Under the pieces are notes generated by a model, which saw nothing but the letters and a program-made list of their open reading frames with translations, did no database searches and was not told the origin of the DNA. Shown here one piece after another: positions 17,046 to 55,333 of a stretch of 64,000 bases of DNA. Numbering within the stretch: position 1 is the first letter of the stretch; every line of letters starts with the position of its first letter. The position numbers and the translations under genes are program-made. Source of the DNA: Clostridia bacterium (lineage in GTDB: Bacteria > Bacillota > Clostridia > Oscillospirales > CAG-382); the NCBI GenBank assembly GCA_017620655.1, contig JAGAUT010000034.1:68844-132843 (forward strand), read 5' to 3'.

Positions 17046-17080
17046 TTATATAAAACCTCCATACGTTTTATTATCGTTTT

Positions 17081-25085: not shown

Positions 25086-25089
25086 ACCC

Positions 25090-35190: not shown

Positions 35191-35219
35191 ATTATAGCAA
35201 ACAAACGTTCTTTTGTCAA
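35191..35219 (-). promoter_or_regulatory. lexA promoter with an embedded LexA (Cheo-type) box
   Basis: Minus strand reads TTGACA (35214-35219), 17-nt spacer, TATAAT (35191-35196). The spacer contains AGAACGTTTGTTTG (35198-35211), which fits GAAC-N4-GTTY. Confidence 0.7.
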
Positions 35220-35242: not shown

Positions 35243-35275
35243 TAAAAAAACGTGTGCTTTCGCACACGTTTTTAT
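35243..35275. terminator. Bidirectional terminator at the end of the ABC operon
   Basis: cgtgtgc (35251-35257) pairs with gcacacg (35262-35268), flanked by A7 and T5 runs. It lies 12 nt beyond the last permease stop. Confidence 0.7.
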
Positions 35276-35286
35276 CTTGATGATAA

Positions 35287-36309
35287 TTAACCAACGATAC
35301 CCGAACGTTCAATACCTTCAACAAACTGTCTCTGAGCAAAGAGGAAGATAATGAAGAGGGGCAGGATAACAAGCATACCGCATGTATTTGTAACAATGGA
35401 TTCCCAAAGTCCTGTTGCTGCGAAGTCCATCTTAAGGCTCTGAGGCATTTCCACAATATTGGGAAGAAGATGAATGTCGCTTGTTGTGAAGAAGGGAGAT
35501 GCTGTATAGAAGGTATCTGTCCACTGCCATGAGAAGGAGAACAGGAATACTGTTGTCATCATGGGGATTGACAGAGGAAGGATGATCTGGAAGAATGTCT
35601 TGAACACGCCTGTACCGTCAATATAAGCAGCTTCTTCAAGTTCGTCGGGAACGCCGCGGTAGAACTGTCTGAAGATAAAGATATAAAGACCGTTCTTGAA
35701 TGCAAGACCTGTGATGGAAAGGAAGAAGAGAGGCCATACCGTATTGATAAGGTTGATTTCCAATCCAAAAAGTCCGAACAAGCCGTAAATATCAAAATAT
35801 CTGAACTTCATGAACATGGCAAGAAGAAGAGTATCATGAGGGATAAGCATTGTAATGATTACGAAAAGGAAGAGAAGATTTCTTCCCTTGAACTTGAACT
35901 TTGCAAATCCGTAACCGATAATAGCACAAATAAGTGTCTGGAAGAAAGCACAGCCGAGTGAAATAAGTGCTGTGTTGATAAGTGCCAAAAAGTAGTCGTT
36001 TTCGAGAATGATAAACTTCCACTGGTCAATATTGGGATGACGGGGAATAAGTTTTACCGTTACGTCTACTAGATCTTCAGGGCTCATGAAAGAGTTGAGG
36101 ATCTTTGTAAGGAAAGGATAAATAATGATGTATGAAATACCGATAAGAAGAACAAATCTGAAAATCTTATACACCAATTCGCCCGCGAATTTCCATGAGA
36201 AATACTTGAGACGAAGTCTTTCTTTAAACGAAAGCTTGCCTTCGAAGTCAATCTGCATTTCTTTTCTTGAAATTTTTCTGAGCTGAGCATCTGTTGTGTT
36301 ATTGTTCAT
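35287..36309 (-). CDS. Carbohydrate ABC transporter permease (MalG-like, extended N-terminus)
   Basis: EAA loop EEAAYIDGTGVFKTFFQIILP with 6 TM segments. Confidence 0.85.
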   Translation of the reverse strand: MNNNTTDAQLRKISRKEMQIDFEGKLSFKERLRLKYFSWKFAGELVYKIFRFVLLIGISYIIIYPFLTKILNSFMSPEDLVDVTVKLIPRHPNIDQWKFIILENDYFLALINTALISLGCAFFQTLICAIIGYGFAKFKFKGRNLLFLFVIITMLIPHDTLLLAMFMKFRYFDIYGLFGLFGLEINLINTVWPLFFLSITGLAFKNGLYIFIFRQFYRGVPDELEEAAYIDGTGVFKTFFQIILPLSIPMMTTVFLFSFSWQWTDTFYTASPFFTTSDIHLLPNIVEMPQSLKMDFAATGLWESIVTNTCGMLVILPLFIIFLFAQRQFVEGIERSGIVG

Positions 36310-36327
36310 TTTATTATCCCCCTTTCC

Positions 36328-37290
36328 TTAGTCTCTTCTCTGATAGAATACGAATGCCGATACAAGAAGCGATACAAGACCGATAAGTGCAAGTACAAGC
36401 AGGAAGTAAATCCAGCTCATGGCACTACTGAGTTCACGGGGTCTGAGACTACCTGTGTTATATACTCTGTTGATATATCTCATTACGACATTGGATTCTG
36501 ATGTAAACGAGTCGATTACTGTGTAAATTGTATTTACAAGAATCATGGGGCTTATCATGGGGAATGTAATCTTCCAGAATGTTTCCCAGCCTGTAGCACC
36601 GTCCATCTTACAGGATTCGTAGATGGCAGGAGAAATAGACTGAAGACCCGAGAGGAAGATAAGCATCTGTACGCCGGAGCGGTTTACAATGTTGAAGATG
36701 TTGTTTACGACACCTACAACGTACTCAACAAGCTCTGTACCGATTACCATATTACCGAGAAGGTTTGTAATATCCATTGTATTGATAAGACCTTCGGATT
36801 CTGCACCGCCGGCACCTGTGTCGATACCGCCGCTGTTCATGTAGTCCATCGCCGCATTACCCTGGTCAATCTGGTCGATAAGACCTGTTGCAAGGATAAC
36901 GGGGATGAAGAAGATTGCTCTGAACACTGCACGACCAAGCATCTTCTGATTGAGGACGATTGCCATGAAGAGAGAGAAGATTACGATAGCAGGTACGTCA
37001 AGTACGAGCTGCTGGATACTCTCTGTAAGTGTTCTTACGAATTCCGCGTCGGAGAAAAGTGCGTCGCGGTAGTTTTCAAGGCCGATAAATTCAAGCGCAT
37101 AACCTGCTTTACCGAGCACATGAATCTTACTGAATGAAAACTCAATCGAGCTTATAAGCATCGGAATGTAAAGAATTACGAAACCGATTACGAAAGGCAG
37201 TACAAAGAACCAGCCTGCTCTTGCCTTCTTTGCATCAAGTGATGCCGGCTTTTTCTTTTTAGCCACTTTTACACTTGCTGTGTTATTCAT
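36328..37290 (-). CDS. Sugar ABC transporter permease (MalF-like)
   Basis: EAA-like loop ESCKMDGATGWETFWKITFPMISP in a multi-TM protein. Confidence 0.85.
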   Translation of the reverse strand: MNNTASVKVAKKKKPASLDAKKARAGWFFVLPFVIGFVILYIPMLISSIEFSFSKIHVLGKAGYALEFIGLENYRDALFSDAEFVRTLTESIQQLVLDVPAIVIFSLFMAIVLNQKMLGRAVFRAIFFIPVILATGLIDQIDQGNAAMDYMNSGGIDTGAGGAESEGLINTMDITNLLGNMVIGTELVEYVVGVVNNIFNIVNRSGVQMLIFLSGLQSISPAIYESCKMDGATGWETFWKITFPMISPMILVNTIYTVIDSFTSESNVVMRYINRVYNTGSLRPRELSSAMSWIYFLLVLALIGLVSLLVSAFVFYQRRD

Positions 37291-37309
37291 AAAAGCTGCA
37301 CCCCTTTCC

Positions 37310-40177
37310 TTATCTTACTGCGAAGCTCATGGCTTCTACAGTTGTTCCGTCTTCTGTTGTTACATCGTGAGTGTTATAGTTGAGAATGAATTCTGTACCG
37401 TTATCGTACTTTACTCTTACAAGTCTTGTACCAAGGTATTCGTGTTCATCAATGAGTGAGTACTTAACACCCTTCATTGCTCCGTTGAAAGAAGCATATG
37501 TTGATTCAATATCATTTGCCCAGTTATCGTAGCTGATAGCGTAGTACTTACTGAATTCAGGGAACGCCTTGAGCTCTGATGTATTATCCTTGGATACTAC
37601 ATAGTAAAGGCTTGCACCGTTTTCAATTGCCTTGAGGACACTGTAGTCATAGTCACCGTCAAGGTTAATAGGTGTACCTGCGAATTCAACATAGCCATGG
37701 AGAATCATGCCCATGAAAGGAACAGACTGGCTTGTGTTAATATTCATACTGCTTTCAAGGGGCACGCTGAGGATATGGTCTGCATAACCCAAAGAATATG
37801 CGTTACCGCCGTCTACCATTACGCTGCCGTTTTCCTTTTCGAGAGTCTTGAGGAAGTCTTCAACGAGTTCCTGAGATTCATCTCTGTTAAGAACGTATTC
37901 ATCGTTATGGTCGGAGTTGAGGTCATAGCCGATAGAAGCTACCGAGATACCACCTGCACCTATCTTCTTATACTTCTTATTGATCTTTTCATAAAGCTCT
38001 GAAATTGAGCCGGGGCTGATTACAGCCTTATCGTCTTCTTCAAAGCCCTGATAGAGTGCATTGTAAACTCTGTGAACAGCTCCTCTGCCGTCGAGAGTCT
38101 TGACTGTATCATCCTTTACGGACAGACCGTCAAAGGACTTGAAGTATTCAACATAAGTGAAGTCAAGGTCGGGATAGAGTCCCACGCCGTTTTCCTTTGC
38201 AAATGCTGCAAGCTTCTTGAGACCGCCCATGCCGCCGATTTTACCAGGAACGCTGAGGGTTGAAGGAGCTGTATGTTCCATACCGCCGTTATACCAGCCG
38301 GTAAGCTTTACGTTGATATTGTCAACGCCTCTTTCCTTGAGGTTAGTGATGATATCCTGAGTCTGCTCAAAGGTTGTGAGAGGAGTCTGGAGCTTTGTGG
38401 GGAAACCGAGAATCTTTTCATCTGTCTTGATTGTACCGAAGTTTTCGATGTAGAGAGCCACATCTTCAGACTTATCGTTTTCGGGAGTAAGTCTTGTAAG
38501 AACTTCTGTCTTTTCAAGGTAATTTCTTACGATTTCAGCCATATCGGTATAGTCAACATCCTTACCGTATACGGGGAAAAGTCTCATGGAGTAGTCGCCA
38601 ACGTACTTTCTGTCGCCGGAAACAGACCATTCTGCATCGCCTGTGGAGGAGATACCTGTAAGTGAATATGTATCTGTTGCCTTGGGATAGAAGGTTGCGT
38701 AAACAGAGCTGTAGTTATGAACTCCGCCGCCGTGGTCGGAAGAAAGTTCTGTGAGTGAGTCACCGTCAACGAAGTAAGCTACAAAGCCCTGACCGATAAG
38801 GTTATCAGCATCTGCTGCTTCCTCTGCGGGAGCTACATCGGCAACGGCTTCAACTTCTGCCTCTGCCTCAGCTTCGACAGCAGCTTCCTCAGTGTTTTCT
38901 TCACCCTCTGCTGCTTCTTCTGTCACTTCTTCAGCTGTTTCTTCAACAACCTCTTCAACAACAGGAGCCAAAGCTGTTTCGGGTCTGTTTTCGATAATGC
39001 CGAAAGCAGGTATTCTCATTGTTTCCTGATTATAACCTGCGATGGAATGGTAGGAGTAATCCTTACCGTAAACCTTACCTGTAAGTGTAAAAGGCTTACC
39101 CTTGATATCTTCAAATCTTGTGATTGTACCCGAACCGTCGGGAAGGAGTGTAAAGCCTGTGTTATCATTATTACCTGCAGAGAGGTAAGGAAGAAGCTTT
39201 ACGTTTACAAGTGTATAGTTTGAAGAGTCATATGTGATACTGTTGGCAGGCATTGAAATCATAATGCCGTTTTCATCGAGAGAATACTCAATAGCGAATC
39301 TGAAGATAGCAGGAGCTGCGGAGGTATCGATGTAGTCGATAAGCTCGTAGTCAGCAGCCATCTGTTCAGCGTCGTAATCTGTATTGTTTTCGATATAGCC
39401 GGAAAGCATTTCAAGTTCTCTGTTGGATACACCGGGGTCAAGTACGTAGATTGCGTAATTTTCGGTTGCAGGGAACTGAGCCTTCATGGATGTAAGAACG
39501 GCAGGAGCAAGCGACTTATCGAAGGGGTCTTTAAGATCGTAGTAAGCTACGAACTGAGCAAAGTCTCTTGCAGACTTGTCTTCCCACTGTTCGATAAGGT
39601 TCTTTTCAAAGCTTTCCTTTTCGATCTGCTTAGGAACAACATACTTTGCCTGTTCCTTACCGAGAGTATATTCTACTCTGATACCTGTTCTTGTATTTTT
39701 AACCTGAATCTGTCCGATGTTCTGGTTTCTTACAACCTTACCGTTGAGAGCAGCATCCTTATAGGAGTTGAATTCAACGATTGCTCCCGAGCTATCCTTA
39801 TACTGGATAACAATCTGGGAAAGGAGCTTCTGCTTAACAGCTTCGTTAGCAGTAGACTGGCTTACGTCATAGGGGTTTGTAAGAATAATCTGACCTGTTG
39901 CCTTAACCTTGATACCAACTTCACCTGTCTCAGCATGAGCCCAGATTTCGTATTCGTCATTTTCAAAGTTAGGCTTATTTTCGCCTGTCGCTTCGTCCTT
40001 GATACCCATTGTAGCGAGCTTTTCTTCAGGGCTGTTATAAAGAACTCCCTTATCGCCTGTCGAAGTGATGTAATCCTTCGAGAGTGTAAAGTCATCATCA
40101 GCCATTGCAACAGTGCAAAGAACTGCAGCGAGCATAAGAACGGAAAGAATAAGGCTTGCGATTTTTGTATATTTCAT
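37310..40177 (-). CDS. Large secreted protein, DUF5696-like; possible TIM-barrel glycosidase-like C-terminal half
   Basis: The signal peptide has a probable AMA/DD cleavage site. A 50-aa Glu/Ala-rich linker sits mid-protein. The C-terminal segment LTGWYNGGMEHTAPS...GGMGGLKKLAAFAKENGVGLYPDLDF resembles GH31-like or DUF5696 proteins. The family name is from memory and unverified. Confidence 0.5.
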   Translation of the reverse strand: MKYTKIASLILSVLMLAAVLCTVAMADDDFTLSKDYITSTGDKGVLYNSPEEKLATMGIKDEATGENKPNFENDEYEIWAHAETGEVGIKVKATGQIILTNPYDVSQSTANEAVKQKLLSQIVIQYKDSSGAIVEFNSYKDAALNGKVVRNQNIGQIQVKNTRTGIRVEYTLGKEQAKYVVPKQIEKESFEKNLIEQWEDKSARDFAQFVAYYDLKDPFDKSLAPAVLTSMKAQFPATENYAIYVLDPGVSNRELEMLSGYIENNTDYDAEQMAADYELIDYIDTSAAPAIFRFAIEYSLDENGIMISMPANSITYDSSNYTLVNVKLLPYLSAGNNDNTGFTLLPDGSGTITRFEDIKGKPFTLTGKVYGKDYSYHSIAGYNQETMRIPAFGIIENRPETALAPVVEEVVEETAEEVTEEAAEGEENTEEAAVEAEAEAEVEAVADVAPAEEAADADNLIGQGFVAYFVDGDSLTELSSDHGGGVHNYSSVYATFYPKATDTYSLTGISSTGDAEWSVSGDRKYVGDYSMRLFPVYGKDVDYTDMAEIVRNYLEKTEVLTRLTPENDKSEDVALYIENFGTIKTDEKILGFPTKLQTPLTTFEQTQDIITNLKERGVDNINVKLTGWYNGGMEHTAPSTLSVPGKIGGMGGLKKLAAFAKENGVGLYPDLDFTYVEYFKSFDGLSVKDDTVKTLDGRGAVHRVYNALYQGFEEDDKAVISPGSISELYEKINKKYKKIGAGGISVASIGYDLNSDHNDEYVLNRDESQELVEDFLKTLEKENGSVMVDGGNAYSLGYADHILSVPLESSMNINTSQSVPFMGMILHGYVEFAGTPINLDGDYDYSVLKAIENGASLYYVVSKDNTSELKAFPEFSKYYAISYDNWANDIESTYASFNGAMKGVKYSLIDEHEYLGTRLVRVKYDNGTEFILNYNTHDVTTEDGTTVEAMSFAVR

Positions 40178-40194
40178 TTTTTCTTTCTCCTTTC

Positions 40195-42465
40195 TTATAC
40201 TCTGTATGAAAGTTCAACGACGATATTAATAATAAATGTAACAATCTTACCGAGAAGGCTCGAGAAGAGTACGCCGATGAACATGATGAACGCCATACCT
40301 ACAATAGATGCAAGTGTTGTGAGAACGTTCTTGAAAAGTGTGTAGTCGTGAATTACCTGCATACCGAAGAAGAGCAGGAAGCCGCACCAGAAGAGTGCAA
40401 CGCCAAGGGCGAGTGTGAGAAGACCTGCTTCATCAACCGTTACGATATTCGAAAGAAGTGTTGTGAGAATAAGGAACGGAGGAAGCGGGAAGAGTGCATA
40501 ACATGTTGCAATATAGATATCCTTGATACTGCCTTCGCCGTCAAACAGTGTTGTGAGACACCAGTTTGAAATTACCCAGAGAAGGATAGGAAGAAGAATA
40601 CCTACTGCCATCATAAGCACGCCTGTATCATCAGGTGTGGGCTTAATTACATAGGACTGACCTATGGAATAGTATACAAACGAAACGATTGTTATTGCAA
40701 GTATGAGAGTTGCACCCTTTGCGGAAGCTCTGTATTCATGCTTGATATCCCAATATCCGTCGAAGGGATGGAACATTACATGGAAGCCGTACATAAATTC
40801 TTCCTTCAAGGTTCTCTTCTTTCTGAGAGCAAGACCTGCGTCGTTGACCTTTGCAGCATACTTGAATATCTTGGAAACGATAATAAAGAATGCCACAACA
40901 ACTATGGGAACTACGATAACGTACTTTTCAACCCATTCCTTTCTTACCTGCTGCCAAGCCTCGGAGTAGTTCTGTGTATCGTAAGCAGCCTTGAACATTT
41001 CCATGGCTTCTTCGTACTTTTCCTGTCTTGAAAGGCTCTTACCGATACCGATGTAGGACATGTCGAAGTTGGAGTTTCTCTGAAGGATTTCTCTCCAGTC
41101 TTCTTCCGACTTATCGAACTGTCTGTCTCTCTGATTCTTGAGAGCCTGAACAAGTACATCGCCGTACTCTGTTCTCTTATATACTGTAATTGCGTCGTTT
41201 GTTCCGTCGAGAACCATAAGGTAGTTCATGGATTCGCCGCCATCTGCATCGCCGTAAGCATAGTCAACAGCCTTAACGAGAGAGATATTACCGAGCTGGG
41301 AACCCTTATCGCCGAAAGCGAAGAGAAGGTTACCGTCTTCGTCGTATGTAAATATCTTCTGTCTCTTTGCGTCAACAATAGACCAAGTACCTTCCGGACC
41401 GAGACCGACGTCAACAACCTTGGAAGGACCAGTTGTATCATACTCGGGAGTTACCTGAGTCTGATATGTGATTTCACCTACGGGAGGATAGAAGCCCGAA
41501 CGCTTCATTACGTCTTCACCGTTAGGGTTAAGCATCTTAACGGGAGAAACGTCACTTGTAATGGACTTTGCGGTGATAGCCTTGAGAAGGTCATCATCGT
41601 TGATGGAGTCTGTTGTTGCGTATACAAAGCCCTTTTCATTGATGTTGAGGTTGTTGAAAGAGGTCGATACGTTCTTTACAGACTTATTTCTCTGTTCTTC
41701 TGTCTGAAGCTTTCTCCAGAGCATATCGAAAAAGCTGAGGGACTGGGACTGAGTACCGATAAAGCCGGCAAACTCACCGTCGCTGTTGATGGAGATAACA
41801 CCCTGGTGGGTAGATTCACCTACAACGTAGATATAACCGGACGAGCTTACTGCAACTGCAAGAGGTCTGTAAACGTGGTTATCTGTGATAACTTCACTTT
41901 CGGGCTCTGCGATTGTTCTGATAAAGTCGCCCATTTCATACTGTACGCCGTCGACTTCAACATCTGCAGTTGCGAATACAAGGATTCTAGCAGAGTCAAT
42001 ATCGCAGACATAAAGCTGATTGTCAATAGCGTAGAGGCCGCGGGGAGATGTAATCTTATCGGGAATACCCCATTCGTTTACGAACTCCTTGATTTCAGCA
42101 ACATATCTGAAACCTGATTCCTCTGTGCTGTATTCGGCAATTACAACTCTGGGTTCTTCTGCTGTGGAGTTTGTATCGGAGATATAAATTCTGCCGTCCC
42201 AGTAGAAGTATCTCTGAGCGTGTTCATCGATTGCCGAGATGCGTCCCGTACAGAAGTCCTGAGGGTCTGTAATGGGCTCATCACCCATTCCGAGTGTTGC
42301 AGATGTGATTACTTCGTAAGGAACATATGCATGGGGAGATTCAACGTAGTTACCGTCGATATCATATGTATATGTAGAGTAAGGAATAATCGCACCGGCG
42401 GGCATTGCTCCAAGCACCATGAGAACAACAAGTGAGAGGAGAACTATTCGTTTTAAATTTTTCAT
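40195..42465 (-). CDS. Fusion protein: secreted beta-propeller-like repeat domain, helical linker and C-terminal Yip1-like 5-TM domain
   Basis: A signal peptide is followed by about 430 aa with recurring hydrophobic-Gly/Asp strand motifs (YVCDIDSARILVF, YIYVVGESTHQGVISI, LLFAFGDKGS, YLMVLDGTNDAITVY). A TPR-like helical segment comes next. The rest is a TM plus a multi-TM region resembling bacterial YIP1-family proteins. Confidence 0.5.
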   Translation of the reverse strand: MKNLKRIVLLSLVVLMVLGAMPAGAIIPYSTYTYDIDGNYVESPHAYVPYEVITSATLGMGDEPITDPQDFCTGRISAIDEHAQRYFYWDGRIYISDTNSTAEEPRVVIAEYSTEESGFRYVAEIKEFVNEWGIPDKITSPRGLYAIDNQLYVCDIDSARILVFATADVEVDGVQYEMGDFIRTIAEPESEVITDNHVYRPLAVAVSSSGYIYVVGESTHQGVISINSDGEFAGFIGTQSQSLSFFDMLWRKLQTEEQRNKSVKNVSTSFNNLNINEKGFVYATTDSINDDDLLKAITAKSITSDVSPVKMLNPNGEDVMKRSGFYPPVGEITYQTQVTPEYDTTGPSKVVDVGLGPEGTWSIVDAKRQKIFTYDEDGNLLFAFGDKGSQLGNISLVKAVDYAYGDADGGESMNYLMVLDGTNDAITVYKRTEYGDVLVQALKNQRDRQFDKSEEDWREILQRNSNFDMSYIGIGKSLSRQEKYEEAMEMFKAAYDTQNYSEAWQQVRKEWVEKYVIVVPIVVVAFFIIVSKIFKYAAKVNDAGLALRKKRTLKEEFMYGFHVMFHPFDGYWDIKHEYRASAKGATLILAITIVSFVYYSIGQSYVIKPTPDDTGVLMMAVGILLPILLWVISNWCLTTLFDGEGSIKDIYIATCYALFPLPPFLILTTLLSNIVTVDEAGLLTLALGVALFWCGFLLFFGMQVIHDYTLFKNVLTTLASIVGMAFIMFIGVLFSSLLGKIVTFIINIVVELSYRV

Positions 42466-42482
42466 ATATTTTCTCCTCCTTC

Positions 42483-43355
42483 TTAGTCTTTCATACCCGA
42501 GCTTGCCATTGTTTCGATGATATTACTCTGAGTGATAACGAATACTGTAACAGGAACGATCATCATGATAACCGTAGATGCTGCAGCCGCACCGCTTCGT
42601 GTAATACCGCCGGCAAGAATTTGCTGGATAGCGTAGTTGAATGTCTTGAGCTGTTCGGAATAGATGTAGATTGAAGTACCGCTGTTCCAAAGGCCCTGGA
42701 AGGAGTAAACGATAAGTGTGAGCCAAGCAGGCTTTACCATCGGCATTACTATCTTCCAATAAATTGTAAGTTCCTTTGCACCATCAAGTCTTGCAGATTC
42801 AAGTACTGAATCCGGAACTGTTGTTTCGATAAACTGTCTCATCAGGTAGAAGCCGAGGGTGTAACCGAAGGCGGGAATAATGAGTGAGAAGTATGTATCA
42901 ATCCAACCGAACGCAGACATGATAATGAAGTTGGAAAGGCTTGTTACTGTGGAGTTGAACATAAGGGAGTAGTAAACGAGCTGGAACATACCCTTGCGTC
43001 CGGGGAACTTAATCTTAGTCATAGCATATGCAGCCATGGAGGCAAGGAACAGGTGTCCGAATGTACCACCCACGGAAACAAGTGCTGTGTTGAATATGTA
43101 TCTTGAGAAGGGAACCCAGCTTTCGCTCATGAGTCTGAAGAGTTCGCCGAAATTCTTGAATGTAGGATTGATAACGAAGAATCTCGGAGGGAACATCCAG
43201 AGTTCATCAAGAGGCTTTAAGGACTGGGATATAGCATAAACCATAGGAAGGAACATGAATGCACCGAAAACGAAGAGCATTACGTTGATTCCCACGTCAC
43301 CGCCGACGGAACGGTTAAATGAACGTCTTTTAATCTTTGGCAATTTCATCATCAT
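42483..43355 (-). CDS. Carbohydrate ABC transporter permease (MalG-like)
   Basis: EAA loop LESARLDGAKELTIYWKIVMPMVKP. Confidence 0.88.
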   Translation of the reverse strand: MMMKLPKIKRRSFNRSVGGDVGINVMLFVFGAFMFLPMVYAISQSLKPLDELWMFPPRFFVINPTFKNFGELFRLMSESWVPFSRYIFNTALVSVGGTFGHLFLASMAAYAMTKIKFPGRKGMFQLVYYSLMFNSTVTSLSNFIIMSAFGWIDTYFSLIIPAFGYTLGFYLMRQFIETTVPDSVLESARLDGAKELTIYWKIVMPMVKPAWLTLIVYSFQGLWNSGTSIYIYSEQLKTFNYAIQQILAGGITRSGAAAASTVIMMIVPVTVFVITQSNIIETMASSGMKD

Positions 43356-44308
43356 TTACCTACCTTCGACAGTAATTTATTTACAAGCAGGTTAGATCCG
43401 ATCATTACTGCAAACAGGATTGTCGCAATAGCCGATGCGTAACCTACCTCCCAACGCTGTCCACCGTAGTCATCAAGGTGGTGCATGATGGTATGAGCGC
43501 AATAGTCAACGGACGGGAATCCACAGAGAGCTGTTACGATTGCACCGAAACCGAAGGACTGGGTGATTGCCATGATAGCACCGAACATCATCTGGTTCTT
43601 CATTACGGGAAGTGTGATGTACCAGAGTTCCTGCCATCTGTTCTTTACACCGTCAACGCTTCCTGCTTCGTAGAGCGACTTATCTACTACCTGGAAGCCG
43701 GCGATAAAGGAAAGGAAGGATGTACCGAGTGATGTCCAGAGGGCAACTACGATTACAAGTGTCATGATATAGTCGGTATCCTGGAACCAGAGTATCGGAC
43801 CGTTGATGATACCGAGCTTCATAAGAGTACCGTTAACCCAACCGTACTGGTCAGAGGAGAACAGTGTCTGCCAGATGAGGTAAACCTGACCGGAAATACT
43901 GGGGGCATAGAATATAAGTGTTACAACCGCACGGATTTTTGGTGTAAGTTCATTGATGAACCACGCAAACATAAGGCTGAGAAGGTACGATACGGGACCT
44001 GTCATTGTTGCAAAAACGAGGGTGTTTTCAACAGCAAGAAGGAAGGTATCGTCATCAAGCAGAAGTCTTATGTAGTTATCAACACCTACGAATACAGGTG
44101 CTTCGAGCATATTAAACTGTGTGAGGCTGAGGAAAAGGGACACGAATACGGGAACGATTGTGAAAAGCATAAATACTATATAGTAAGGAGCTACCATGAA
44201 GTAACCTACCTTATTTACTTTCATTTCACGGAGAGTCCATTCCCATTTGGTCATGTCTTTTCTAAGCTTCGGCGCAGCCTGCTGCTGCATTACAGCTTTT
44301 TCTGACAT
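43352..44308 (-). CDS. Sugar ABC transporter permease (MalF-like)
   Basis: EAA loop YEAGSVDGVKNRWQELWYITLPVMKN. It has a 4-nt overlap with the next permease. Confidence 0.88.
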   Translation of the reverse strand: MSEKAVMQQQAAPKLRKDMTKWEWTLREMKVNKVGYFMVAPYYIVFMLFTIVPVFVSLFLSLTQFNMLEAPVFVGVDNYIRLLLDDDTFLLAVENTLVFATMTGPVSYLLSLMFAWFINELTPKIRAVVTLIFYAPSISGQVYLIWQTLFSSDQYGWVNGTLMKLGIINGPILWFQDTDYIMTLVIVVALWTSLGTSFLSFIAGFQVVDKSLYEAGSVDGVKNRWQELWYITLPVMKNQMMFGAIMAITQSFGFGAIVTALCGFPSVDYCAHTIMHHLDDYGGQRWEVGYASAIATILFAVMIGSNLLVNKLLSKVGK

Positions 44309-44342
44309 TTATTTCACTCCTTAATCAATTTCTTTTGAGGGA

Positions 44343-47300
44343 TTATCTCTCTATCCCAAGTTCTTCAAAGTATTCTTCCTTTGTGAGGAAGCCGTACTCT
44401 GCTCTCTTTCTCGAAAGCTCGTGGTCGATATCGTCGATATAGCCGCGCATTGCTTCCGAAGCAACTTCACCGTCATCTACAACATTGTAGAATGCAAAGT
44501 TTGTATATCTTGCAACGATGTAGTTACCGGGGGACATGGGAGTTCCCTTGAGTGATGCAAACTGCTGCTCGAGGTTTTTCTTTTCCTGTGCTGTCCAGGA
44601 CTGACCGAGAAGAGCATCTACATTCGCTGTATTATACTTGGCAGCCGTACCCATGAGGGCTACCTGTTCCTGACCGAATCTTTCCTGAGTATCCTTGGAA
44701 ACCCACCACTGGAGGAATGCCCATGCATTCTGTGCCTTCTTGGACTCAGTTATATCCTGACCGTCCTTGAGGTCGTCAACAGCATCCTTCATCATCATTA
44801 CTGCCTGAGGAGTACCGGGTGTGGAGTGGTCAATATACTTATTACCTTCATCGTCAACTCTTTCAACACCAGGAAGCTGAACGAATTCCCAGAGACCTGC
44901 GATTTCGGGTGCGAATACCTTAAGCTGGTTATATACTGTGTACGCCGCAATAGAGATAGGCATTTCACCTGTTCTGAATCTGTTTGCGAAGTCATAGGTA
45001 ACAGGTTCGCCGTAGAGAGTGAACCATTCTGTCATTCTCTGGAACGCATCGAGTGCTCCGTTGGAGCCGAGGTTGGATGCGATACCTACAGTTCTCAGAT
45101 ATTCTCTGCTGTCGCGTGTGATTTCTTCGGGATTTTCGTAATATTCCTTATAATCTTCAGCAGACTCGAACCATTCAATACCCGACTGGTACATATAAAT
45201 CTGAGTCATAGCCTGTGAGAAGCCCATTTCCATCTGGTTTTCGGAAAGTGCTCTGATTATTGCTTCAACGTCATCCCATGTTTCGGGAACTTCGAGACCG
45301 AGTTCTACGAAGATATCCTTTCTGTAGAAGAGCATCGGGAAGTCGATTGTGTAAGGAAGACCGTAGGATACAACACCGTTTCTTTCAACGCCGTCGATAT
45401 TCTTATATGTCTTGCCGTCTTCTTCGTACTCTACTCTGTCGGGGTCGAGAAGTGTGAGAGGAACAAAGAGTTCATCGTTATCTCTGAAATATGTCTTCTT
45501 AACCTCGTCATATGTAAGAATCTTCTTGTCGCCGGGAAGAGTAATACGTTCATTAATCTTGGCAACGGTTTCGTCCTGGAAGTAGTTAAGAGGAACAACA
45601 GCGTTTCTGATACCGTAACCGTTAGGGTCAGCATCCATGGAAACGTCAGGGCCAACGCCTGCGAGTGTCGCAGGAAGAAGTGTACCGGCTGCAATGAGCT
45701 TTAAGTTTACGGCTACACTTTCGTTATTGAAGGAGTCGTCAACCATCTGTCTCATGATTGTAGCCTGGTCACGGCCTGTTGTGATCCATACTTCTACCGC
45801 ATTGGGGTCGTCATCGTCAATCTTTGTGGCAGAACCTATGGAGTTATAGTCTGTAAAGAAGGACATGATAAAAGACTTGAGCTCATGCGCCATGGACTGG
45901 AAGAAGTTTGCATTAGCCTTAGGAAGCTTGTTGCCGGCAGGCTGTACGAGAACGTAGTCAAGCTGGAGAGGCTGTGCCTTTGTGCTGAGAAGCCATGTAC
46001 CGAGAGAACCGATGTAACTCTTGAAGTTACCGAGATTTGCTGCTATTTTGTTTTCGTCCTTGCTCATTTCATCAAGGAGGAAGGAGATTCTGTCAAGGAT
46101 TACTGTGTTTTCACCCTTTGTACCGATCTTTTCTTCGAGTTCCTTGGAAACCTTGTCAAGGTTCTTCTTTTCCTGCTTCATACCCGTGAGAACACTGGGA
46201 ATGAGCTTGGAAAATTCGTAGTCTGTATAATCATCGGGTTCGGAACCTGTGATCATAAGAATCTGTCTGTAGTAGTCATTGAGCTTTGTCTGAATGTTTT
46301 CGATTTCACCGAGAACGTTGGACATGTCACCGAGAACAGCTCTGAATTCAAGTGTGTGTGCACCTTTTGTGAGGTAGAACTTGAAATCCTGATTACCGTC
46401 ATTAAGCTTCTTTACCTGCCAGTCGTCGCCGTACTTGAACTGCAAAGACTTTGCTTCAAGGAAGGGATACTCGCCGTCAATCTTAAGTGAACGAGACGAG
46501 AAGAGACCCTGGTTGATAGTCTGCTTGAATCTGGGAACTATGTCATACCAGCCATCCTCAGCAATTTCAACCTCATACTTGATCCACTGACCGGGGCTCT
46601 TCCACTTGTCACCGCCGTTACCGCCGATGGTGTTGAGAAGAGATGCTGCAGGGTCCTGAGGATATGTAATACCGCTGGTTCTGTCGTTCATTGCATAGAT
46701 AACCTGTTCACTTGTCTGGTAGGGAGTTTCTGCATGAATCATAACTTCCTTAACATTTTCAGGTACCTTTGCATCGGCATACTTTTCGAGGTATTCTTCG
46801 TATGTGATAACCTCATCGGCATAACCCACTTCAATCCACGCAATAGCCATGGGCTCGCATGCCGCTTCAAAAGTGATAACGTGCTCACCTTCCTCAAGCA
46901 TAAACTTGAGAGGTGCATCAAAGAATGTTTCGGAGTCTGTAATGTAGGTTTCAACCCACTCGGGAGCTTCCGATTTTGTAGGACGCATTTCATTCTTATT
47001 GAAGTCGAGTCTGAAGTTGTATCTGCCGTCTTCACCCTTAACAGATTCATATCCGGAATTGAGAACATAGTTATCAGCCCAGAAACGCGAGAAGTTAAGA
47101 GTACGTGCTTCCTTATAGGGAACGAGATCATCGATGATGAGAATACGTTCAATGTTGGAGCCGTGGCTGTCATCGTCGGTTCTGGATTCATCCCAGCTGC
47201 CGACGAGGGGACGGTACTTAATCTTGATTGTATACATCGCGGTCTTAGGAACGTTAACCTTGAAAGAAACTTTGCCGGAACCGGGTGTATAAAGAACTTC

Positions 47301-47645
47301 TTCCCCTGTTTCTTCATCTGTTACAACAGAAACATCCGCATAATCCTTCACCTTTTCCGCAGTTTCTTCATCTACAACCTCGGGGATGTAGTAGTCTGCC
47401 GCAGAAATCTTGGGAAGATTTTCGGTAGCGTCGGGGATTTCGTCGTGAAGAGCAAGGTAATCACTGTAAGTAGTGGAAACCATAAGCTCAGCCATTGCAT
47501 CCAGCGAATGTGCGGTCGTCGAGTTTTCGAGCTTCAACTGTGAAACAGGAGCTGCGAACATTGCAACCGAACCGAAGAGCTGGAGAAGCATACTTGTCAC
47601 CAGTAAAAGAACAACAAGCTTGCTTTTGTTTTTCGCAATCATCAT
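44343..47645 (-). CDS. Giant extracellular solute-binding protein (1100 aa): N-terminal CBM-like modules, coiled coil and C-terminal family-1-type SBP domain
   Basis: The signal/anchor has no lipobox Cys. Two segments follow the G.W..Y.V...DG.Y pattern of CBM6/35-like modules (MYTIKIKYRP..., GQWIKYEVEIAEDGWYDIVPRF). The C-terminal ~500 aa are colinear with sugar SBPs, and the gene heads an operon of permeases. Confidence 0.6.
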   Translation of the reverse strand: MMIAKNKSKLVVLLLVTSMLLQLFGSVAMFAAPVSQLKLENSTTAHSLDAMAELMVSTTYSDYLALHDEIPDATENLPKISAADYYIPEVVDEETAEKVKDYADVSVVTDEETGEEVLYTPGSGKVSFKVNVPKTAMYTIKIKYRPLVGSWDESRTDDDSHGSNIERILIIDDLVPYKEARTLNFSRFWADNYVLNSGYESVKGEDGRYNFRLDFNKNEMRPTKSEAPEWVETYITDSETFFDAPLKFMLEEGEHVITFEAACEPMAIAWIEVGYADEVITYEEYLEKYADAKVPENVKEVMIHAETPYQTSEQVIYAMNDRTSGITYPQDPAASLLNTIGGNGGDKWKSPGQWIKYEVEIAEDGWYDIVPRFKQTINQGLFSSRSLKIDGEYPFLEAKSLQFKYGDDWQVKKLNDGNQDFKFYLTKGAHTLEFRAVLGDMSNVLGEIENIQTKLNDYYRQILMITGSEPDDYTDYEFSKLIPSVLTGMKQEKKNLDKVSKELEEKIGTKGENTVILDRISFLLDEMSKDENKIAANLGNFKSYIGSLGTWLLSTKAQPLQLDYVLVQPAGNKLPKANANFFQSMAHELKSFIMSFFTDYNSIGSATKIDDDDPNAVEVWITTGRDQATIMRQMVDDSFNNESVAVNLKLIAAGTLLPATLAGVGPDVSMDADPNGYGIRNAVVPLNYFQDETVAKINERITLPGDKKILTYDEVKKTYFRDNDELFVPLTLLDPDRVEYEEDGKTYKNIDGVERNGVVSYGLPYTIDFPMLFYRKDIFVELGLEVPETWDDVEAIIRALSENQMEMGFSQAMTQIYMYQSGIEWFESAEDYKEYYENPEEITRDSREYLRTVGIASNLGSNGALDAFQRMTEWFTLYGEPVTYDFANRFRTGEMPISIAAYTVYNQLKVFAPEIAGLWEFVQLPGVERVDDEGNKYIDHSTPGTPQAVMMMKDAVDDLKDGQDITESKKAQNAWAFLQWWVSKDTQERFGQEQVALMGTAAKYNTANVDALLGQSWTAQEKKNLEQQFASLKGTPMSPGNYIVARYTNFAFYNVVDDGEVASEAMRGYIDDIDHELSRKRAEYGFLTKEEYFEELGIER

Positions 47646-47811
47646 TGCTATTTCCTCCTCTGTTGAGAATTGCTCGGTACAGGTCTTCCCGCACTTTTCT
47701 TCATATTATATATGCAGCGACAAACAGAAAGGCATAACTCACACCTTTGTCACTTTGCCGTCACACAGACAACACTAAAAAAGGGCAAAAAGCACCCAAT
47801 TACATGGTTAT

Positions 47812-47840
47812 AGTATATCAACGCAAAAATGGTTTGTCAA
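47812..47840 (-). promoter_or_regulatory. Promoter of the seven-gene ABC operon
   Basis: Minus strand reads TTGACA (47835-47840), 17-nt spacer, TATACT (47812-47817). The leader before the ATG at 47645 is about 160 nt. Confidence 0.5.
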
Positions 47841-48284: not shown

Positions 48285-50210
48285 TTACTGAATTTCATCG
48301 AGAATCGTCTGCAGTTCGTCCCATGTCTCATACAGCTTTTCAAGTTTGTCGTTCAGCTCAGAAAGCTCGGAAAACAGCCTTGAAATCTGCTCATAATCCG
48401 AAGCACACTGCTCCTGTTTTCTCTGATTCTCTTCGATTTTCGCCTCGGTTTCGGCAATCTGTTTTTCAGTCTCCGCGAGCTTCTTTTCGGCACTCTTTCG
48501 TCTGTTCTTGAGTTCTTTTGCCTTCTCGTAGTCCATTTGCGAATTGGTTACACCCGTCTGCTCCGAAGTGCCGCCATCGATTATGTTCTTTTTCTTTTCT
48601 TTATAAGAGCAGAAATCCTCATATCCGCCCTTGAAGTCAAAGGTTCCGTCCTCTCTCATCTCGAAAATACGGCTTGCCAGCTTCTTTACGAAATATCTGT
48701 CATGGGACACACAAAGCACGGTGCCATCGTATTCGGCAAGTGCCTGTTCGAGCACTTCTCTCGACGGCGCATCAAGGTGGTTGGTAGGTTCGTCAAGGAT
48801 AAGCATGTCGCTCTTTTCAAGCATGAGCTTTGCAAAGGTAAGTCTTGCCTTTTCTCCGCCCGAAAGCACATCAATCTTCTTGAATACATCCTCGCTTGTA
48901 AATAGAAACCCTGCAAGAACGCTTCTGATTTCGGTCTGCGTCTTATTTGGGAAGCACTCCCACAGCTCATCTATCACCGTATTGCTCGAGTCAAGTCCCT
49001 GATGCTCCTGATCATAGTAGCCTATCGACAGTCCCCTTGCGTATTCAAATGTGCCGAAGTCCTGACCGATTTTTCCGCAAAGAATTTTAAGCATGGTGGA
49101 CTTACCCACCCCGTTCTGACCGAGAATGAACATCTTATCTCTGCCGTGAAGCAGAAAGGACACATTTTCAAAGAGCTGTTTGCCGGGAAATCCCTTTGTA
49201 AGTCCCGTAACTTCAAGCATTTTATCGGGACATCTGCCGTTTTCGCTCATCTGGAAACGGAATCGGATATTTGACGGCAAATCCTTGGGCTTTTCCAGTT
49301 TTTCCATGCGGTCGATAGCCTTCATTCTGCTTTCTGCGGCAATGATGTTGCGTTCTCTGTTCCATCTGCGCTGGTTTTCAATAAAGGCTTCAAGTCTTGC
49401 TATTTCCTTCTGCTGAAGGTCATAGTGCTTCTGATCTATTTTTCTGTCGATTTCCTTCTGCTTTACATAGTCTGTATAAGAAGTGTTGTAGAGCTTGCCT
49501 TCCCTGTTCTCGATTTCAAAGGTCTTTTTCGTTACCTTATCGAGAAAATATCTGTCATGGGAAATAACAATGAGGCACTTTTTATAGTTTTTTAAGTATT
49601 CTTCAAGCCATTCAACCGTCTCAATGTCAAGGTGGTTGGTAGGCTCGTCAAGCATAAGTATGTCGGGCTCTGACAAAAGAAGACGTGCTATGGCAAGCCT
49701 TGTTTTCTGACCTCCCGAAAGGGTATTAATTCTTCTCGTATGGGTATCCTTTTCAAAGCCGAGACCTGTGAGCATACTTGAAATTCTGCTTCGGAATTCA
49801 TATCCGCCCTCACGCTTGAAGTTATCTTCGAGGGTTGTATACTCTTTGGCAAGGCTCATATGCTTATCGTCGTCATGAGCCTCATTCATAAGCCTTTCAA
49901 GGTCGGCAAGACGTTTTTCCATGTCGAGAAGCTTCGGGAATGCGTTGCACATCTCCTCGAACATCTCTCCGTTGGATTCAAGACCCGTATTCTGTTCGAG
50001 ATAGCCGACGGTTGTATCCTTGGCAAGAAACACGTTGCCCTCGCTCTGCTCCTGTCTGCCTGCAAGTATCTTCATAAAAAGACTTTTGCCTGCACCGTTT
50101 ACGCCCACTATTCCTATTTTATCGTTTTCCTGTATGCCGAGACTTACTCTGTCAAGTATTACGTCTGTTCCGAAGGACAGAGTTACGTCTGAGGCACTGA
50201 GTATTATCAC
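48285..50210 (-). CDS. ABC-F family ATPase (two NBDs, no TMD, coiled-coil C-terminal extension)
   Basis: Two Walker A motifs (GVNGAGKS, GQNGVGKS), two LSGG signatures and a Lys/Glu-rich C-terminal tail. Confidence 0.88.
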   Translation of the reverse strand: MIILSASDVTLSFGTDVILDRVSLGIQENDKIGIVGVNGAGKSLFMKILAGRQEQSEGNVFLAKDTTVGYLEQNTGLESNGEMFEEMCNAFPKLLDMEKRLADLERLMNEAHDDDKHMSLAKEYTTLEDNFKREGGYEFRSRISSMLTGLGFEKDTHTRRINTLSGGQKTRLAIARLLLSEPDILMLDEPTNHLDIETVEWLEEYLKNYKKCLIVISHDRYFLDKVTKKTFEIENREGKLYNTSYTDYVKQKEIDRKIDQKHYDLQQKEIARLEAFIENQRRWNRERNIIAAESRMKAIDRMEKLEKPKDLPSNIRFRFQMSENGRCPDKMLEVTGLTKGFPGKQLFENVSFLLHGRDKMFILGQNGVGKSTMLKILCGKIGQDFGTFEYARGLSIGYYDQEHQGLDSSNTVIDELWECFPNKTQTEIRSVLAGFLFTSEDVFKKIDVLSGGEKARLTFAKLMLEKSDMLILDEPTNHLDAPSREVLEQALAEYDGTVLCVSHDRYFVKKLASRIFEMREDGTFDFKGGYEDFCSYKEKKKNIIDGGTSEQTGVTNSQMDYEKAKELKNRRKSAEKKLAETEKQIAETEAKIEENQRKQEQCASDYEQISRLFSELSELNDKLEKLYETWDELQTILDEIQ

Positions 50211-50246
50211 TTTAGCATTTTCCTTTCCTGCAATATTTGAAGGGAA

Positions 50247-53072
50247 TTATTCAAGTATTTTTTTAAGGTACACACCCGTGTAGGACTTTTCACATTCCGC
50301 CACCTGCTCAGGTGTACCTGTATACACGATTTCGCCGCCTGCATCTCCACCCTCGGGGCCGAGGTCTATAATGTAGTCTGCGTTCTTTATCATGTCAAGA
50401 TTGTGTTCGATTACAATCACGGTGTTTCCTGCATCAACAAGCTTCTGAAGCACGTCAATAAGCTTTTCAACGTCAGCCGTATGCAGTCCTGTTGTAGGTT
50501 CATCGAGAATATACAATGTCTTTCCCGTACTCTTTTTTGAAAGCTCGGTTGCAAGCTTTACTCTCTGTGCTTCACCGCCCGAAAGAGTTGTGGAGGACTG
50601 ACCGATTTTGATATATCCGAGACCTACGTCGCACAGGGTTTTAAGTTTTCTGTGCATGGTCGGGATGTTTTCAAAGAATTCCCTGCCCTCATCGCAGGTC
50701 ATTTCAAGGATATCGGATATACTCTTGCCCTTGTACTTGACTTCAAGCGTTTCCTTGTTATATCTCTTGCCCTTACAAACGTCACAAGTCACATAAACGT
50801 CGGGTAAAAAGTGCATTTCCACAAGAAGCGTACCGTCGCCGGCACATGCCTCACATCTGCCGCCCTTGAGGTTGAAGGAGAATCTGTCCTTCTTATAGCC
50901 CCGCATCTTTGCACCCTGAGTTGCGGCAAAAAGGTCTCTTACGTCGGTAAATAGACCGGTATACGTAGCGGGGTTGGATCTTGGTGTTCTGCCGATGGGC
51001 GACTGATCGATGGCAATGACTTTATCAAGGTGTTCTACACCCTCGATTTTCTTATGCTTACCTGCCGTTGTCTGGGCACGGTTAAGCTGTTTTGCAAGCG
51101 AGTTCAGAAGAATTGAATTTACAAGCGAAGATTTACCCGAACCCGAAACACCCGTGACACAAGTCAGGGTTCCGAGGGGGAATGAAACGTCGATGTTCTT
51201 TAAGTTATGCTCCTCGGCGCCTATTACTTTAAGGAAGTTGCCGTTGCCTTTTCTTCTTTCCTTGGGAACGGCGATCTTACGTCTACCCGAAAGAAAATCG
51301 CCCGTTACCGAGTTTTTGTTGTTCATTATCTGCTTAGGCGTGCCCGTTGCCACAATCTGTCCGCCGTGAATACCTGCCGCAGGGCCGATATCCACGATGT
51401 AATCCGATTCAAGCATGGTTTCTTCGTCATGCTCTACAACAATTACGGTGTTTCCGATATCACGCAGATTCTTAAGTGTTGCAATAAGTTTTGAGTTATC
51501 CCTCTGATGAAGACCGATGCTGGGTTCATCAAGGATATACAGCACACCCATAAGCGACGAGCCGATCTGCGTTGCAAGTCTGATTCTCTGGCTTTCACCG
51601 CCCGAAAGTGTACCTGAACGGCGTGAAAGAGAAAGGTATCCGAGACCGACATTTTCGAGGAAGCTGAGACGTGACAGAATTTCCTTTAAGATTTCCTTTG
51701 CAATAACAGCTTCTGTCTTACCGAACTTCAAGTTTTCAAAAAAGACTTTCGCCTTTTCAACCGAAAGATTACAAAGCTCTGCGATATTAAGTCCGCCGAC
51801 TGTCACCGAAAGGGATTCGGGCTTTAAGCGTTTTCCTTCGCATGATGAGCACGGAACAGTATCCATAAACTGCTCGTAGTAGGCTCTCATTTCGGGTGTT
51901 GTATAGTTCTGATTATATCTTCTTTCAATTTCACGGACAATACCGATAAAGCTGAGATTATATCCTCTGTAGCCATAGCGGATTTTTTCATCGCCCTTAC
52001 CGTAGAACAGCACGTCTCTTGCTTTCTTTGACATTCTGTCAAGGGGCGTATTAACGTCACAGCCGAATTCACGAAGTGCCGCATTTATACCTTCAGCACC
52101 CCATGTTCCGTCCTTTGCACTCTTATATCCGTTGCATACGCAGGCACCCTCGGAAAGTGACTTTGACATATCGGGAAAGAGCTTTTCAGGTGAAAGAACA
52201 AAGCTTTCGCCAAGACCGTCACAATCGGGGCAGGCACCGAAGGGACTGTTGAAGGAGAACATTCGAGGTTCAAGCTCTCCGAGGCTTATGCCGTGTTCGG
52301 CACAGGAGAAATTCTGCGAGAACATCATTTCACTCATGCCCTCAAATTCGCCCTCGTGAAGTGCGATAACGCACAGTCCGTCACTCAGCTTGAATGCAGT
52401 TTCAACGGAATCGGCAAGACGTGAACGGATATCCTCTTTCATTACAAGTCTGTCGACTACGATTTCAATATTATGTCTTTTATTCTTATCAAGCTCGATA
52501 TTATCCGAAAGAGACATTATCTCGCCGTTGATTCTTGCTCTGACATAACCGTTCTTCTGAGAATCGGCAAGAAGCTTTTCATGTGTACCCTTTTTACCTC
52601 TGACAACGGGTGAGAGCACATAAAACTTTGTTCCCTCGGGAAGATGCAGAATCTTATCGAGAATTGTATCTATAGACTGCTTTTCGATAACCTTGCCGCA
52701 AACGGGACAGTGAGGTGTACCCACTCTTGCATAGAGAAGTCTGAGATAGTCATATATTTCGGTAACTGTACCCACGGTGGAACGGGGGTTTTTGCTTGTG
52801 GTTTTCTGGTCGATGGAAATGGCGGGAGAAAGCCCCTCAACACCGTCGATGTCGGGCTTGTCAAGCTGACCGAGGAACTGTCTTGCATAAGAGGACAGGG
52901 ATTCCACAAAGCGTCGGTGGCCTTCGGCATAGATTGTATCAAAGGCAAGGGACGATTTTCCCGAACCCGAAAGTCCCGTAAAGACAACCAGCTTGTCCCT
53001 GGGTATTTCAACATCTACATTTTTAAGGTTATGGACTCTTGCACCCGTAATTTTAAGTGATTTATAACCCAA
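50247..53072 (-). CDS. uvrA: Excinuclease ABC subunit A
   Basis: [25 protein letters not shown], zinc-finger cysteines and duplicated ABC modules. The TTG start has a GGAGA RBS 9 nt upstream and overlaps the recG 3' end by 11 nt. Confidence 0.93.
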
Positions 53073-55152: not shown

Positions 55153-55333
55153 GTTTCTCTACCTCCTTTTTTTACATATCTATGGCATTCTAATCTAGTA
55201 TGTATTATATACCATAATAAGGCACATTTGTTTGTATAAATTGTAAAATGTTGCAATTACTTCACACGTCTTTCATACAAAAGGGGTATTCTGTTATTTG
55301 TATTATCAATTAATATGAAAGGACGATTATCAG

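Follow-up and report, generated by a model that had tools for sequence, protein, structure and literature searches.

A seven-gene Clostridia operon with two CUT1-type permease pairs, a giant solute-binding protein and NHL/Yip1 and DUF5696 accessory proteins

Introduction

The route by which polysaccharide fragments from beyond the cell wall reach the membrane ABC importers in Gram-positive gut bacteria and biomass degraders is far less understood than the Sus paradigm of the Bacteroidota. The present analysis concerns an operon of a Clostridia bacterium (Oscillospirales, CAG-382; assembly GCA_017620655.1), located within 64,000 nucleotides of contig JAGAUT010000034.1 (forward-strand positions 68,844 to 132,843; this whole stretch is called the window in the following). 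On the minus strand of the window, it encodes a giant solute-binding protein (SBP), two permease pairs of the ATP-binding cassette (ABC) importer type, P1P2 and P3P4, and two large accessory proteins, one with NHL and Yip1 domains and one with DUF5696. A sequence-only reading of the window had described these genes as an importer-like operon with unusual accessory proteins, that together might form one machine for the surface capture, processing and uptake of a polymeric substrate. We have followed up this description with profile searches, structure models and a survey of gene order, and the locus has been found to consist of two separable blocks, of which the second, comprising both accessory proteins and P3P4, is an invariant core.

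Gene content and signals of the operon

Seven closely packed open reading frames (ORFs) occupy 35287-47645 of the minus strand, and the ORF listing has returned the coordinates that had been noted earlier. In the direction of transcription, the predicted signals and the genes are:

47812-47840, minus strand: predicted sigma-70-type promoter, TTGACA-17 nt-TATACT with extended TG, 11/12 matches
47646-47811, minus strand: 5' leader of ~160 nt, with a weak terminator-like hairpin and a ribosome-binding site
44343-47645, minus strand: giant SBP gene, 1100 aa
43352-44308, minus strand: P1 gene, MalF/UgpA-type permease of translocator A, 318 aa, EAA loop EAGSVDG
42483-43355, minus strand: P2 gene, MalG/UgpE-type permease of translocator A, 290 aa, EAA loop ESARLDG
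40195-42465, minus strand: NHL/Yip1 gene, membrane-anchored accessory protein, 756 aa
37310-40177, minus strand: DUF5696 gene, secreted protein with GH129-like fold, 955 aa
36328-37290, minus strand: P3 gene, MalF-type permease of translocator B, 320 aa, EAA loop ESCKMDG
35287-36309, minus strand: P4 gene, MalG-type permease of translocator B, 340 aa, EAA loop EAAYIDG
~35275-35243, minus strand: two-way intrinsic terminator, 8-bp GC-rich stem, GAAA loop, minus-strand T-run

From the SBP gene to P4, the intergenic gaps have been re-derived as 34, -4, 17, 17, 19 and 18 nt, with a 4-nt overlap between P1 and P2, and a GAGGAGG ribosome-binding site is read before the SBP ATG. The terminator scan had listed a hairpin at 35252-35265 in the plus-strand reading only; the minus-strand reading has been made from the sequence itself, which past the P4 stop runs aaaaaCGTGTGC-gaaa-GCACACGttttttt, and the terminator claimed earlier for 35243-35275 is recovered in this way. 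Promoter-like and terminator-like matches within the operon occur at chance frequency, and the seven genes plausibly share a single transcript. Directly downstream of the predicted promoter, the leader holds a hairpin at 47797-47783 (minus strand; GGGTGC-TTTTT-GCCC followed by TTTTTT), which may be a chance feature or an attenuator. No riboswitch or leader family has been matched by an Rfam scan of the leader, and riboswitch control of the operon has been rejected, as Rfam on the whole window returns RNase P RNA and one tRNA only, both of them elsewhere.

The flanks are as described before: on the 3' side lies lexA with its own 12/12 promoter, on the 5' side an ABC-F gene with its own terminator. 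Beyond the ABC-F gene, uvrA and recG have been found. It had further been pointed out that ATPase and regulator genes are missing nearby. Indeed, no MalK/MsmX-type ATPase is encoded in the 64-kb window, where the LSGGQ signature occurs in the ABC-F protein and UvrA only, and the only regulators of the window are of AraC type and ~30 kb off the operon. The weight that had been given to this absence does not hold, as it is ordinary for CUT1 systems of Bacillota with an unlinked MsmK, and a Paenibacillus orthologue carries a MalK gene upstream.

Two pairs of CUT1-type permeases

All four permeases score above the Pfam gathering threshold for BPD_transp_1, match the UgpA/UgpE, MalF/MalG and GlcT/GlcU models and carry the EAA coupling-loop motif, in line with their earlier assignment as MalF/MalG-like proteins. 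Among orthologues, the motif has been found in 79 of 79 P2, 83 of 84 P3 and 67 of 80 P4 sequences. Identity between the pairs amounts to 24% for P1 versus P3 and 22% for P2 versus P4; judged by these values, the two pairs are old paralogues. A variable extracytoplasmic loop of ~60 aa follows transmembrane segment 3 of P3, and its conservation profile reveals no clear docking motif, the loop centre being variable across orthologues.

An unusually large solute-binding protein without lipobox

The 1100-aa protein yields no match in Pfam. Its AlphaFold2 model (predicted local distance difference test, pLDDT, 80.5; predicted template-modelling score, pTM, 0.79) displays, after a type-I signal peptide, two beta-sandwiches at about aa 100-275 and 300-437, a helical bundle of ~120 aa (439-556), and a CUT1 SBP domain from about aa 560 to 1100. 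In a Foldseek search with the whole protein, this last domain dominates the matches, and SBPs for sophoro-oligosaccharides and maltose are retrieved at E 1e-12 and a TM-score of ~0.7. Weak sequence matches to CUT1 SBPs of the PDB at aa 760-810 and the detection of SBP_bac_1/8 in orthologues agree with the model, according to which the C-terminal half of the protein is an SBP of MalE-like fold.

The carbohydrate-binding module (CBM)-like nature of the N-terminal half, which had been claimed together with the SBP assignment, is weakly supported. Pfam and PDB sequence searches with the N-terminal 400 aa return nothing over noise bar one weak match of the second beta-sandwich (E 0.004) to residues 426-510 of a cycloisomaltooligosaccharide glucanotransferase, a stretch which we take to be the CBM35 insert of that enzyme. 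Membership of the N-terminal modules in CBM6/35 is not established by this match.

A lipobox is absent from the giant SBP of the window and from all of its 120 orthologues inspected, which have type-I signal peptides instead. This is uncommon for a Gram-positive SBP, tethering as a lipoprotein being a typical, not a strictly defining trait of such importers; retention of the protein would therefore need a partner or an uncleaved anchor. In one locus of the survey described below (L001, 2711-5807), gene calling divides the giant SBP into two ORFs of 762 and 287 aa, and in another (L156, 9878-14211) the DUF5696 and P4 genes are each broken up, which may reflect frameshifts, assembly errors or decaying copies.

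The NHL/Yip1 and DUF5696 accessory proteins

The domains announced for the two accessory proteins have been recovered by profile searches. In the 756-aa protein, a signal peptide is followed by an extracytoplasmic NHL-type beta-propeller region, TPR-like helices, a transmembrane segment at 516-534 and a five-segment membrane domain that matches Yip1 (PF04893) at E 5.1e-15 over aa 561-730, covering model positions 1-170 of 173. Hydropathy places five hydrophobic segments within aa 561-730, and NHL and TPR are matched by Pfam as well. Across orthologues, the propeller falls into the NHL, SGL or SBBP families. The NHL and YIP1 parts are fused or split by lineage, being separate genes in Butyrivibrio and in ~24 of the metagenome loci introduced below.

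The 955-aa protein matches DUF5696 (PF18952) at E 1.2e-146, with 490 bits against a gathering cut-off of 25.6, and the match is broken into two stretches by an acidic, Glu/Ala/Val-rich low-complexity insert at aa 400-460 (window 38800-38980; pLDDT <50). Its AlphaFold2 model (pLDDT 81, pTM 0.77) combines an N-terminal beta-sandwich, a (beta/alpha)8 barrel and a C-terminal beta-sandwich. Foldseek with this model leads to glycoside hydrolase (GH) family 129, namely to ZgGH129 (E 2.5e-31; entries 5opq and 8rzk) and NagBb (E 2e-22; 5wzn), with probability 1.00 and target TM-scores of 0.67-0.73, followed by GH101, GH31 and GH36. Sequence identity in the structural alignments is as low as 10-13%; NagBb is matched at E 0.3 with the single sequence and at E 0.0024 with the family profile, the latter match being partial and covering barrel strands 1-3, and family-level sequence similarity to GH129 is not reached. 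Pfam on the 955-aa protein returns DUF5696 and no GH family.

Five barrel residues, D683, D756, D842, E852 and H827, are kept from Oscillospiraceae to Butyrivibrio and Paenibacillus. According to model and alignment, the four acidic ones sit at or after barrel strands, which makes them candidate active-site residues, named here by position and conservation. D752, in a D-L-N context that presumably resembles the nucleophile motifs of GH31 and GH36, has been rejected as nucleophile, since it is not conserved in Butyrivibrio or Paenibacillus.

With 5,916 clusters at 50% identity, DUF5696 is a large family, in which many homologues reach 1.2-2.5 kaa. In two of these (P0390 and P0430), the barrel and the last beta-sandwich are set apart by ~900-1100 aa rich in Ala, Thr, Lys and Glu. 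This insertion looks helical, is matched by no Pfam family and might serve as a stalk or wall-spanning spacer; no extra domains have been found by Pfam in homologues of 1.8-2.5 kaa.

Conservation and gene order

Species-representative genomes have been scanned with a DUF5696 alignment, which yielded at least 556 encoding stretches. The best 79 of these, nearly all from uncultured gut Clostridia, Oscillospiraceae or 'Eubacteriales', form together with four earlier loci a set of 83 loci that represents the clade of the window. A neighbourhood survey had been proposed for the seven-gene order, with the following outcome: the exact order SBP-P1-P2-YIP-DUF-P3-P4 is present in 66 of the 83 loci, all exceptions being due to a contig end or a split ORF, and all seven genes occur in the same order on plasmid pNP243 of Butyrivibrio fibrisolvens and on a Paenibacillus cellulosilyticus plasmid, where the best match of each protein is its positional counterpart. 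The seven proteins diverge in step (pairwise r 0.86-0.98), with the highest median identities in the permeases (56-69%; P1 69% across 69 loci) and lower ones in the extracytoplasmic proteins (40-46%).

The surroundings of the operon vary freely. In 68 clade loci, the flanks are made up of housekeeping genes (IscS, NifU, MnmA, RNase H, ABC-F, formyltransferase), no flanking family recurs in more than 10 loci, and no conserved neighbouring ATPase, regulator or carbohydrate-active enzyme (CAZyme) has been found. BLAST matches labelled 'ATP' upstream of the operon, considered as possible MalK genes, most likely stem from ABC-F genes, one of which also lies upstream of the operon in the window. The Butyrivibrio locus additionally comprises a two-component system, a GH43 gene and two ordinary SBPs, and orthologous Paenibacillus loci have a MalK-type ATPase gene (ABC_tran+OB_MalK+TOBE_2) directly upstream. 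In Paenibacillus cellulosilyticus (L085, 1-4127), recG precedes the module by a few genes, as the window operon follows just downstream of recG/uvrA/ABC-F (48285-55158); this shared proximity is probably a coincidence.

A metagenome scan seeded on the Paenibacillus protein has added 80 diverse loci, in which the homologues are 25-70% identical to the seed. As far as the contig permits, all 80 contain NHL/Yip1-DUF5696-P3-P4. The placement of the giant SBP-P1-P2 genes relative to this core could be assessed in 51 loci: they lie upstream in 40, downstream in 5, and are absent, with at least 5.5 kb of sequence on either side, in 6. An ordinary extra SBP is adjacent in 29 of the 51, in contrast to 1 of the 83 clade loci. 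Flanks of the diverse set encode AraC, LacI and two-component regulators, GH26, GH5, GH3 and CBM35 proteins, and MalK-type ATPases, from which it follows that the system is embedded in polysaccharide-utilisation loci of varying specificity. Among all loci surveyed, L038 and L039 are near-identical to each other, with one layout and with match coordinates offset by 95 bases, and are labelled as Clostridiales and 'Candidatus Margulisbacteria', respectively; the latter label looks like a binning or contamination error.

Over ~160 loci of Bacilli and Clostridia, the NHL/Yip1, DUF5696, P3 and P4 genes are never apart or reordered, and the giant SBP always travels with P1P2. The layout is thus one of two separable blocks, A (giant SBP-P1-P2) and B (NHL/Yip1-DUF5696-P3-P4, the invariant core), and the invariance of the core together with the mobility of block A indicates that the accessory proteins belong with the second permease pair. 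In the window variant, a second SBP is missing, as are genes for a regulator and an ATPase. The picture of two permease pairs that share one SBP in one machine does not hold as a general rule: there are two blocks, and the second pair has its own ordinary SBP beside it in the 29 loci named above, an SBP which the clade of the window lacks.

Proposed function

The reading that we prefer, at a probability of roughly 0.55, is that the operon encodes two CUT1 sugar importers with dedicated surface accessories, which would take up oligosaccharides of a plant-type polysaccharide. The giant SBP would hold long or polymer-attached chains and deliver them to P1P2, DUF5696 would trim or debranch the captured oligosaccharides, and P3P4 would import the trimmed products. 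The Yip1 domain may anchor and organise the complex at the membrane, like YknW does for YknXYZ, and both translocators would be powered by an MsmK/MsmX-type ATPase encoded outside the window. In other lineages, an ordinary SBP encoded beside P4 would mostly feed P3P4. In the clade of the window, this P4-adjacent SBP would have been lost or never present, so that P3P4 would depend on the giant SBP, on an SBP whose gene is located elsewhere or on the accessory proteins. The capture, processing and uptake that had been proposed earlier would, for a glycan as substrate, agree with the SBP beta-sandwiches, the GH129-like fold of DUF5696 and the CAZyme and sugar-regulator neighbours of the relatives.

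A further-reaching version, which we hold only tentatively and consider on balance unlikely, is that the NHL/Yip1 protein as scaffold, DUF5696 and P3P4 form one surface complex, usually with the giant SBP and P1P2, as a Gram-positive counterpart of the utilisome, in which the accessory proteins hand substrate to the importer without or beside a lipoprotein SBP. If this were true, type I ABC importers in thousands of Bacillota would have accessory machinery of a class that has so far gone unrecognised.

Several observations weigh against the preferred reading of two importers with dedicated accessories. In 68 clade loci the operon stands amid housekeeping genes, which is atypical for a substrate-inducible polysaccharide locus, and the CAZyme neighbours of the more distant relatives vary by lineage (xylanases, GH43, GH26, GH5), which makes one conserved specificity hard to picture. 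Block B is found without block A in six loci, in two of them without any adjacent SBP, one of these looking degraded. The candidate nucleophile D756 is replaced by N in one orthologue. Finally, the orthology to the Caldicellulosiruptor locus discussed below is a match of annotation and gene order, not a sequence comparison.

The alternative that survives best, though we regard it as rather improbable, is that of two ordinary CUT1 transporters which work independently and are linked by no more than position and co-regulation, with the NHL/Yip1 and DUF5696 proteins as free-standing secreted or membrane proteins (e.g., an exo-glycosidase and a lectin) that make no physical contact with either translocator. 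The blocks are separable and permutable, each permease pair has its own EAA loops, the second pair is accompanied by its own ordinary SBP in many loci, and a published reconstruction counts XloEFG and AxoFGE as separate systems (PMC8579813). Against such independence, the four-gene core has remained constant in ~160 loci while the flanks vary, the fusion of Yip1 with a propeller has no obvious solo role and the Yip1 protein YknW is a known ABC assembly factor, and the giant SBP and DUF5696 have no anchors of their own.

Less probable still is an inactive DUF5696, which would act as a glycosidase-like glycan receptor or docking platform for P3P4, i.e., as SBP substitute or adaptor. Such a role would agree with the P3P4 pairs that have no adjacent SBP in the clade of the window and in some loci with block B only, with the marginal sequence similarity to characterised GH families (E 0.0024 over part of the barrel), with the constancy of the protein while its CAZyme context varies widely, and with the ~1000-aa helical insertion of many homologues, which is typical of structural surface proteins. 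Against it stand the fold, which matches active retaining glycosidases end to end, and the conservation of H827 and of D683, D756, D842 and E852 at the C-terminal ends of barrel strands, as would be expected of an active site.

That the clade operon has a constitutive housekeeping task, for example in salvaging or remodelling the glycans on the surface of the cell itself (capsule, exopolysaccharide, wall turnover products) appears quite unlikely to us, for while its strong consensus promoter, the lack of a local regulator, its position between lexA and ABC-F/uvrA/recG and the flanks of 68 related loci, which are housekeeping genes and never CAZymes, would fit, distant orthologues reside in classic polysaccharide-utilisation contexts, the C. 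bescii counterpart is, by annotation, xylan-induced, the CBM-like modules of the SBP suggest an external polymer, and gut Clostridia often have no linked CAZymes.

The module is very common, occurring in hundreds of Gram-positive species from Paenibacillus to Oscillospiraceae, and by annotation it stands first in the principal xylan locus of an organism that serves as a model for biofuel research. If the two accessory proteins should turn out to be an enzyme and a scaffold coupled to the transporter, DUF5696 would acquire a function and might form a glycoside hydrolase family of its own, and thousands of loci annotated as 'two ABC transporters plus hypotheticals' would need re-annotation. If the genes are merely co-regulated neighbours, the result would be a useful correction of annotation and nothing further.

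Other features of the window

Besides the operon, the window contains a glycogen metabolism cluster at 8767-18982 (minus strand), with genes for a GH13 amylase-like protein, glycogen phosphorylase, starch/glycogen synthase, two ADP-glucose pyrophosphorylase-type proteins and a branching enzyme with CBM48. An ORF at 61085-62806 (plus strand) weakly matches the GH127 beta-L-arabinofuranosidase catalytic domain (E 1e-6); outside the glycogen cluster, no other CAZyme-like gene has been seen in the window. Three genes for AraC-family regulators and one for a GFO/IDH/MocA oxidoreductase are located at 1807-5585, with no evident tie to the operon. The two RNA genes detected by Rfam are a class A bacterial RNase P RNA at 25087-25433 (minus strand, 272 bits) and a tRNA gene at 8613-8684 (minus strand). 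The perfect 12/12 promoter of lexA (35191-35219, minus strand) holds in its spacer GAACGTTTGTTT, which presumably resembles the Gram-positive SOS box GAAC-N4-GTTC and suggests that lexA is autoregulated.

Comparison with known systems

The closest counterpart in the literature is the xylan degradation locus of Caldicellulosiruptor (Anaerocellum) bescii, Athe_0174-0181, with the order xloEFG-X-GH129-axoFGE followed by xylanase genes (Rodionov et al. 2021, PMC8579813); this paper is the only one found for Yip1, NHL, GH129 and CUT1 combined. By annotation and order, not by sequence, an SBP, two permeases, an NHL protein, a GH129-like protein and two permeases follow each other as in the window, and likewise no ATPase gene is included (PMC8579813). 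Athe_0177 is described as 'NHL repeat-containing protein' and Athe_0178 as extracellular 'putative GH129'; xylan and Avicel both induce the genes, which are placed in the XynR/AraR regulon (PMC8579813). Binding of XynR to the operator of the locus has been measured, and the C. saccharolyticus counterparts respond to xylan-rich biomass. The C. bescii locus goes on with the ordinary SBP AxoE and the xylanase genes under XynR/AraR control (PMC8579813), whereas past P4 of the window there is neither SBP nor CAZyme, the terminator and lexA follow instead, and a regulator is missing. Concerning the question whether a homologous cluster has already been characterised, a similar-looking locus has thus been published as two separate, xylan-induced transporters, and X and GH129 have been given no roles (PMC8579813), so that the accessory proteins are uncharacterised there too. 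This agrees with the earlier statement that the accessory roles have not been worked out experimentally: no paper has been found for DUF5696 or PF18952, and according to a 2025 paper the substrate predictions for A. bescii transporters lack experimental validation.

Canonical CUT1 importers (TC 3.A.1.1), e.g., Athe_0595-0598 of A. bescii, share with the window a MalF/MalG-type BPD_transp_1 heterodimer with EAA loops, an oligosaccharide SBP of MalE fold and the lack of a linked ATPase gene, MsmK being the shared ATPase of the oligosaccharide ABC importers in that organism (PMC12838199). The window differs from them in several respects: its SBP, ~2.5x the normal size, has two beta-sandwiches and a helical bundle and is not a lipoprotein, one operon holds both permease pairs, and two large extracytoplasmic proteins are encoded as dedicated accessories.

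For a bacterial Yip1 protein, YknW of Bacillus is the only functional precedent found in the literature. [quoted passage not shown] YknW is small and stand-alone, and its partners are a MacB-type exporter and a membrane-fusion protein (PMC4887032), whereas Yip1 in the window type of locus goes with a type I importer and is either joined to a large NHL propeller outside the cytoplasm or encoded beside it. With regard to DUF5696, GH129, represented by the Bifidobacterium bifidum alpha-N-acetylgalactosaminidase NagBb and a Zobellia galactanivorans 3,6-anhydro-D-galactosidase, has a similar three-domain fold, as have GH101, GH31 and GH36. DUF5696 is set apart by being secreted and by its gene, which is always placed between the Yip1 gene and an ABC permease pair.

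The Sus-like utilisomes of Bacteroidota combine a SusCD transporter with surface glycan-binding proteins and glycosidases. The window resembles them by functional analogy only, in that binding modules, a glycosidase-like protein and a transporter are co-encoded, whereas proteins, membrane architecture and energy coupling are wholly different and no homology is implied. Taken against these systems, the locus type has already been seen and partly annotated, and its CUT1 importers are of a known kind; what appears to have gone unrecognised is the invariant four-gene core, its near-constant partner in an unanchored giant SBP, and the breadth of their distribution.

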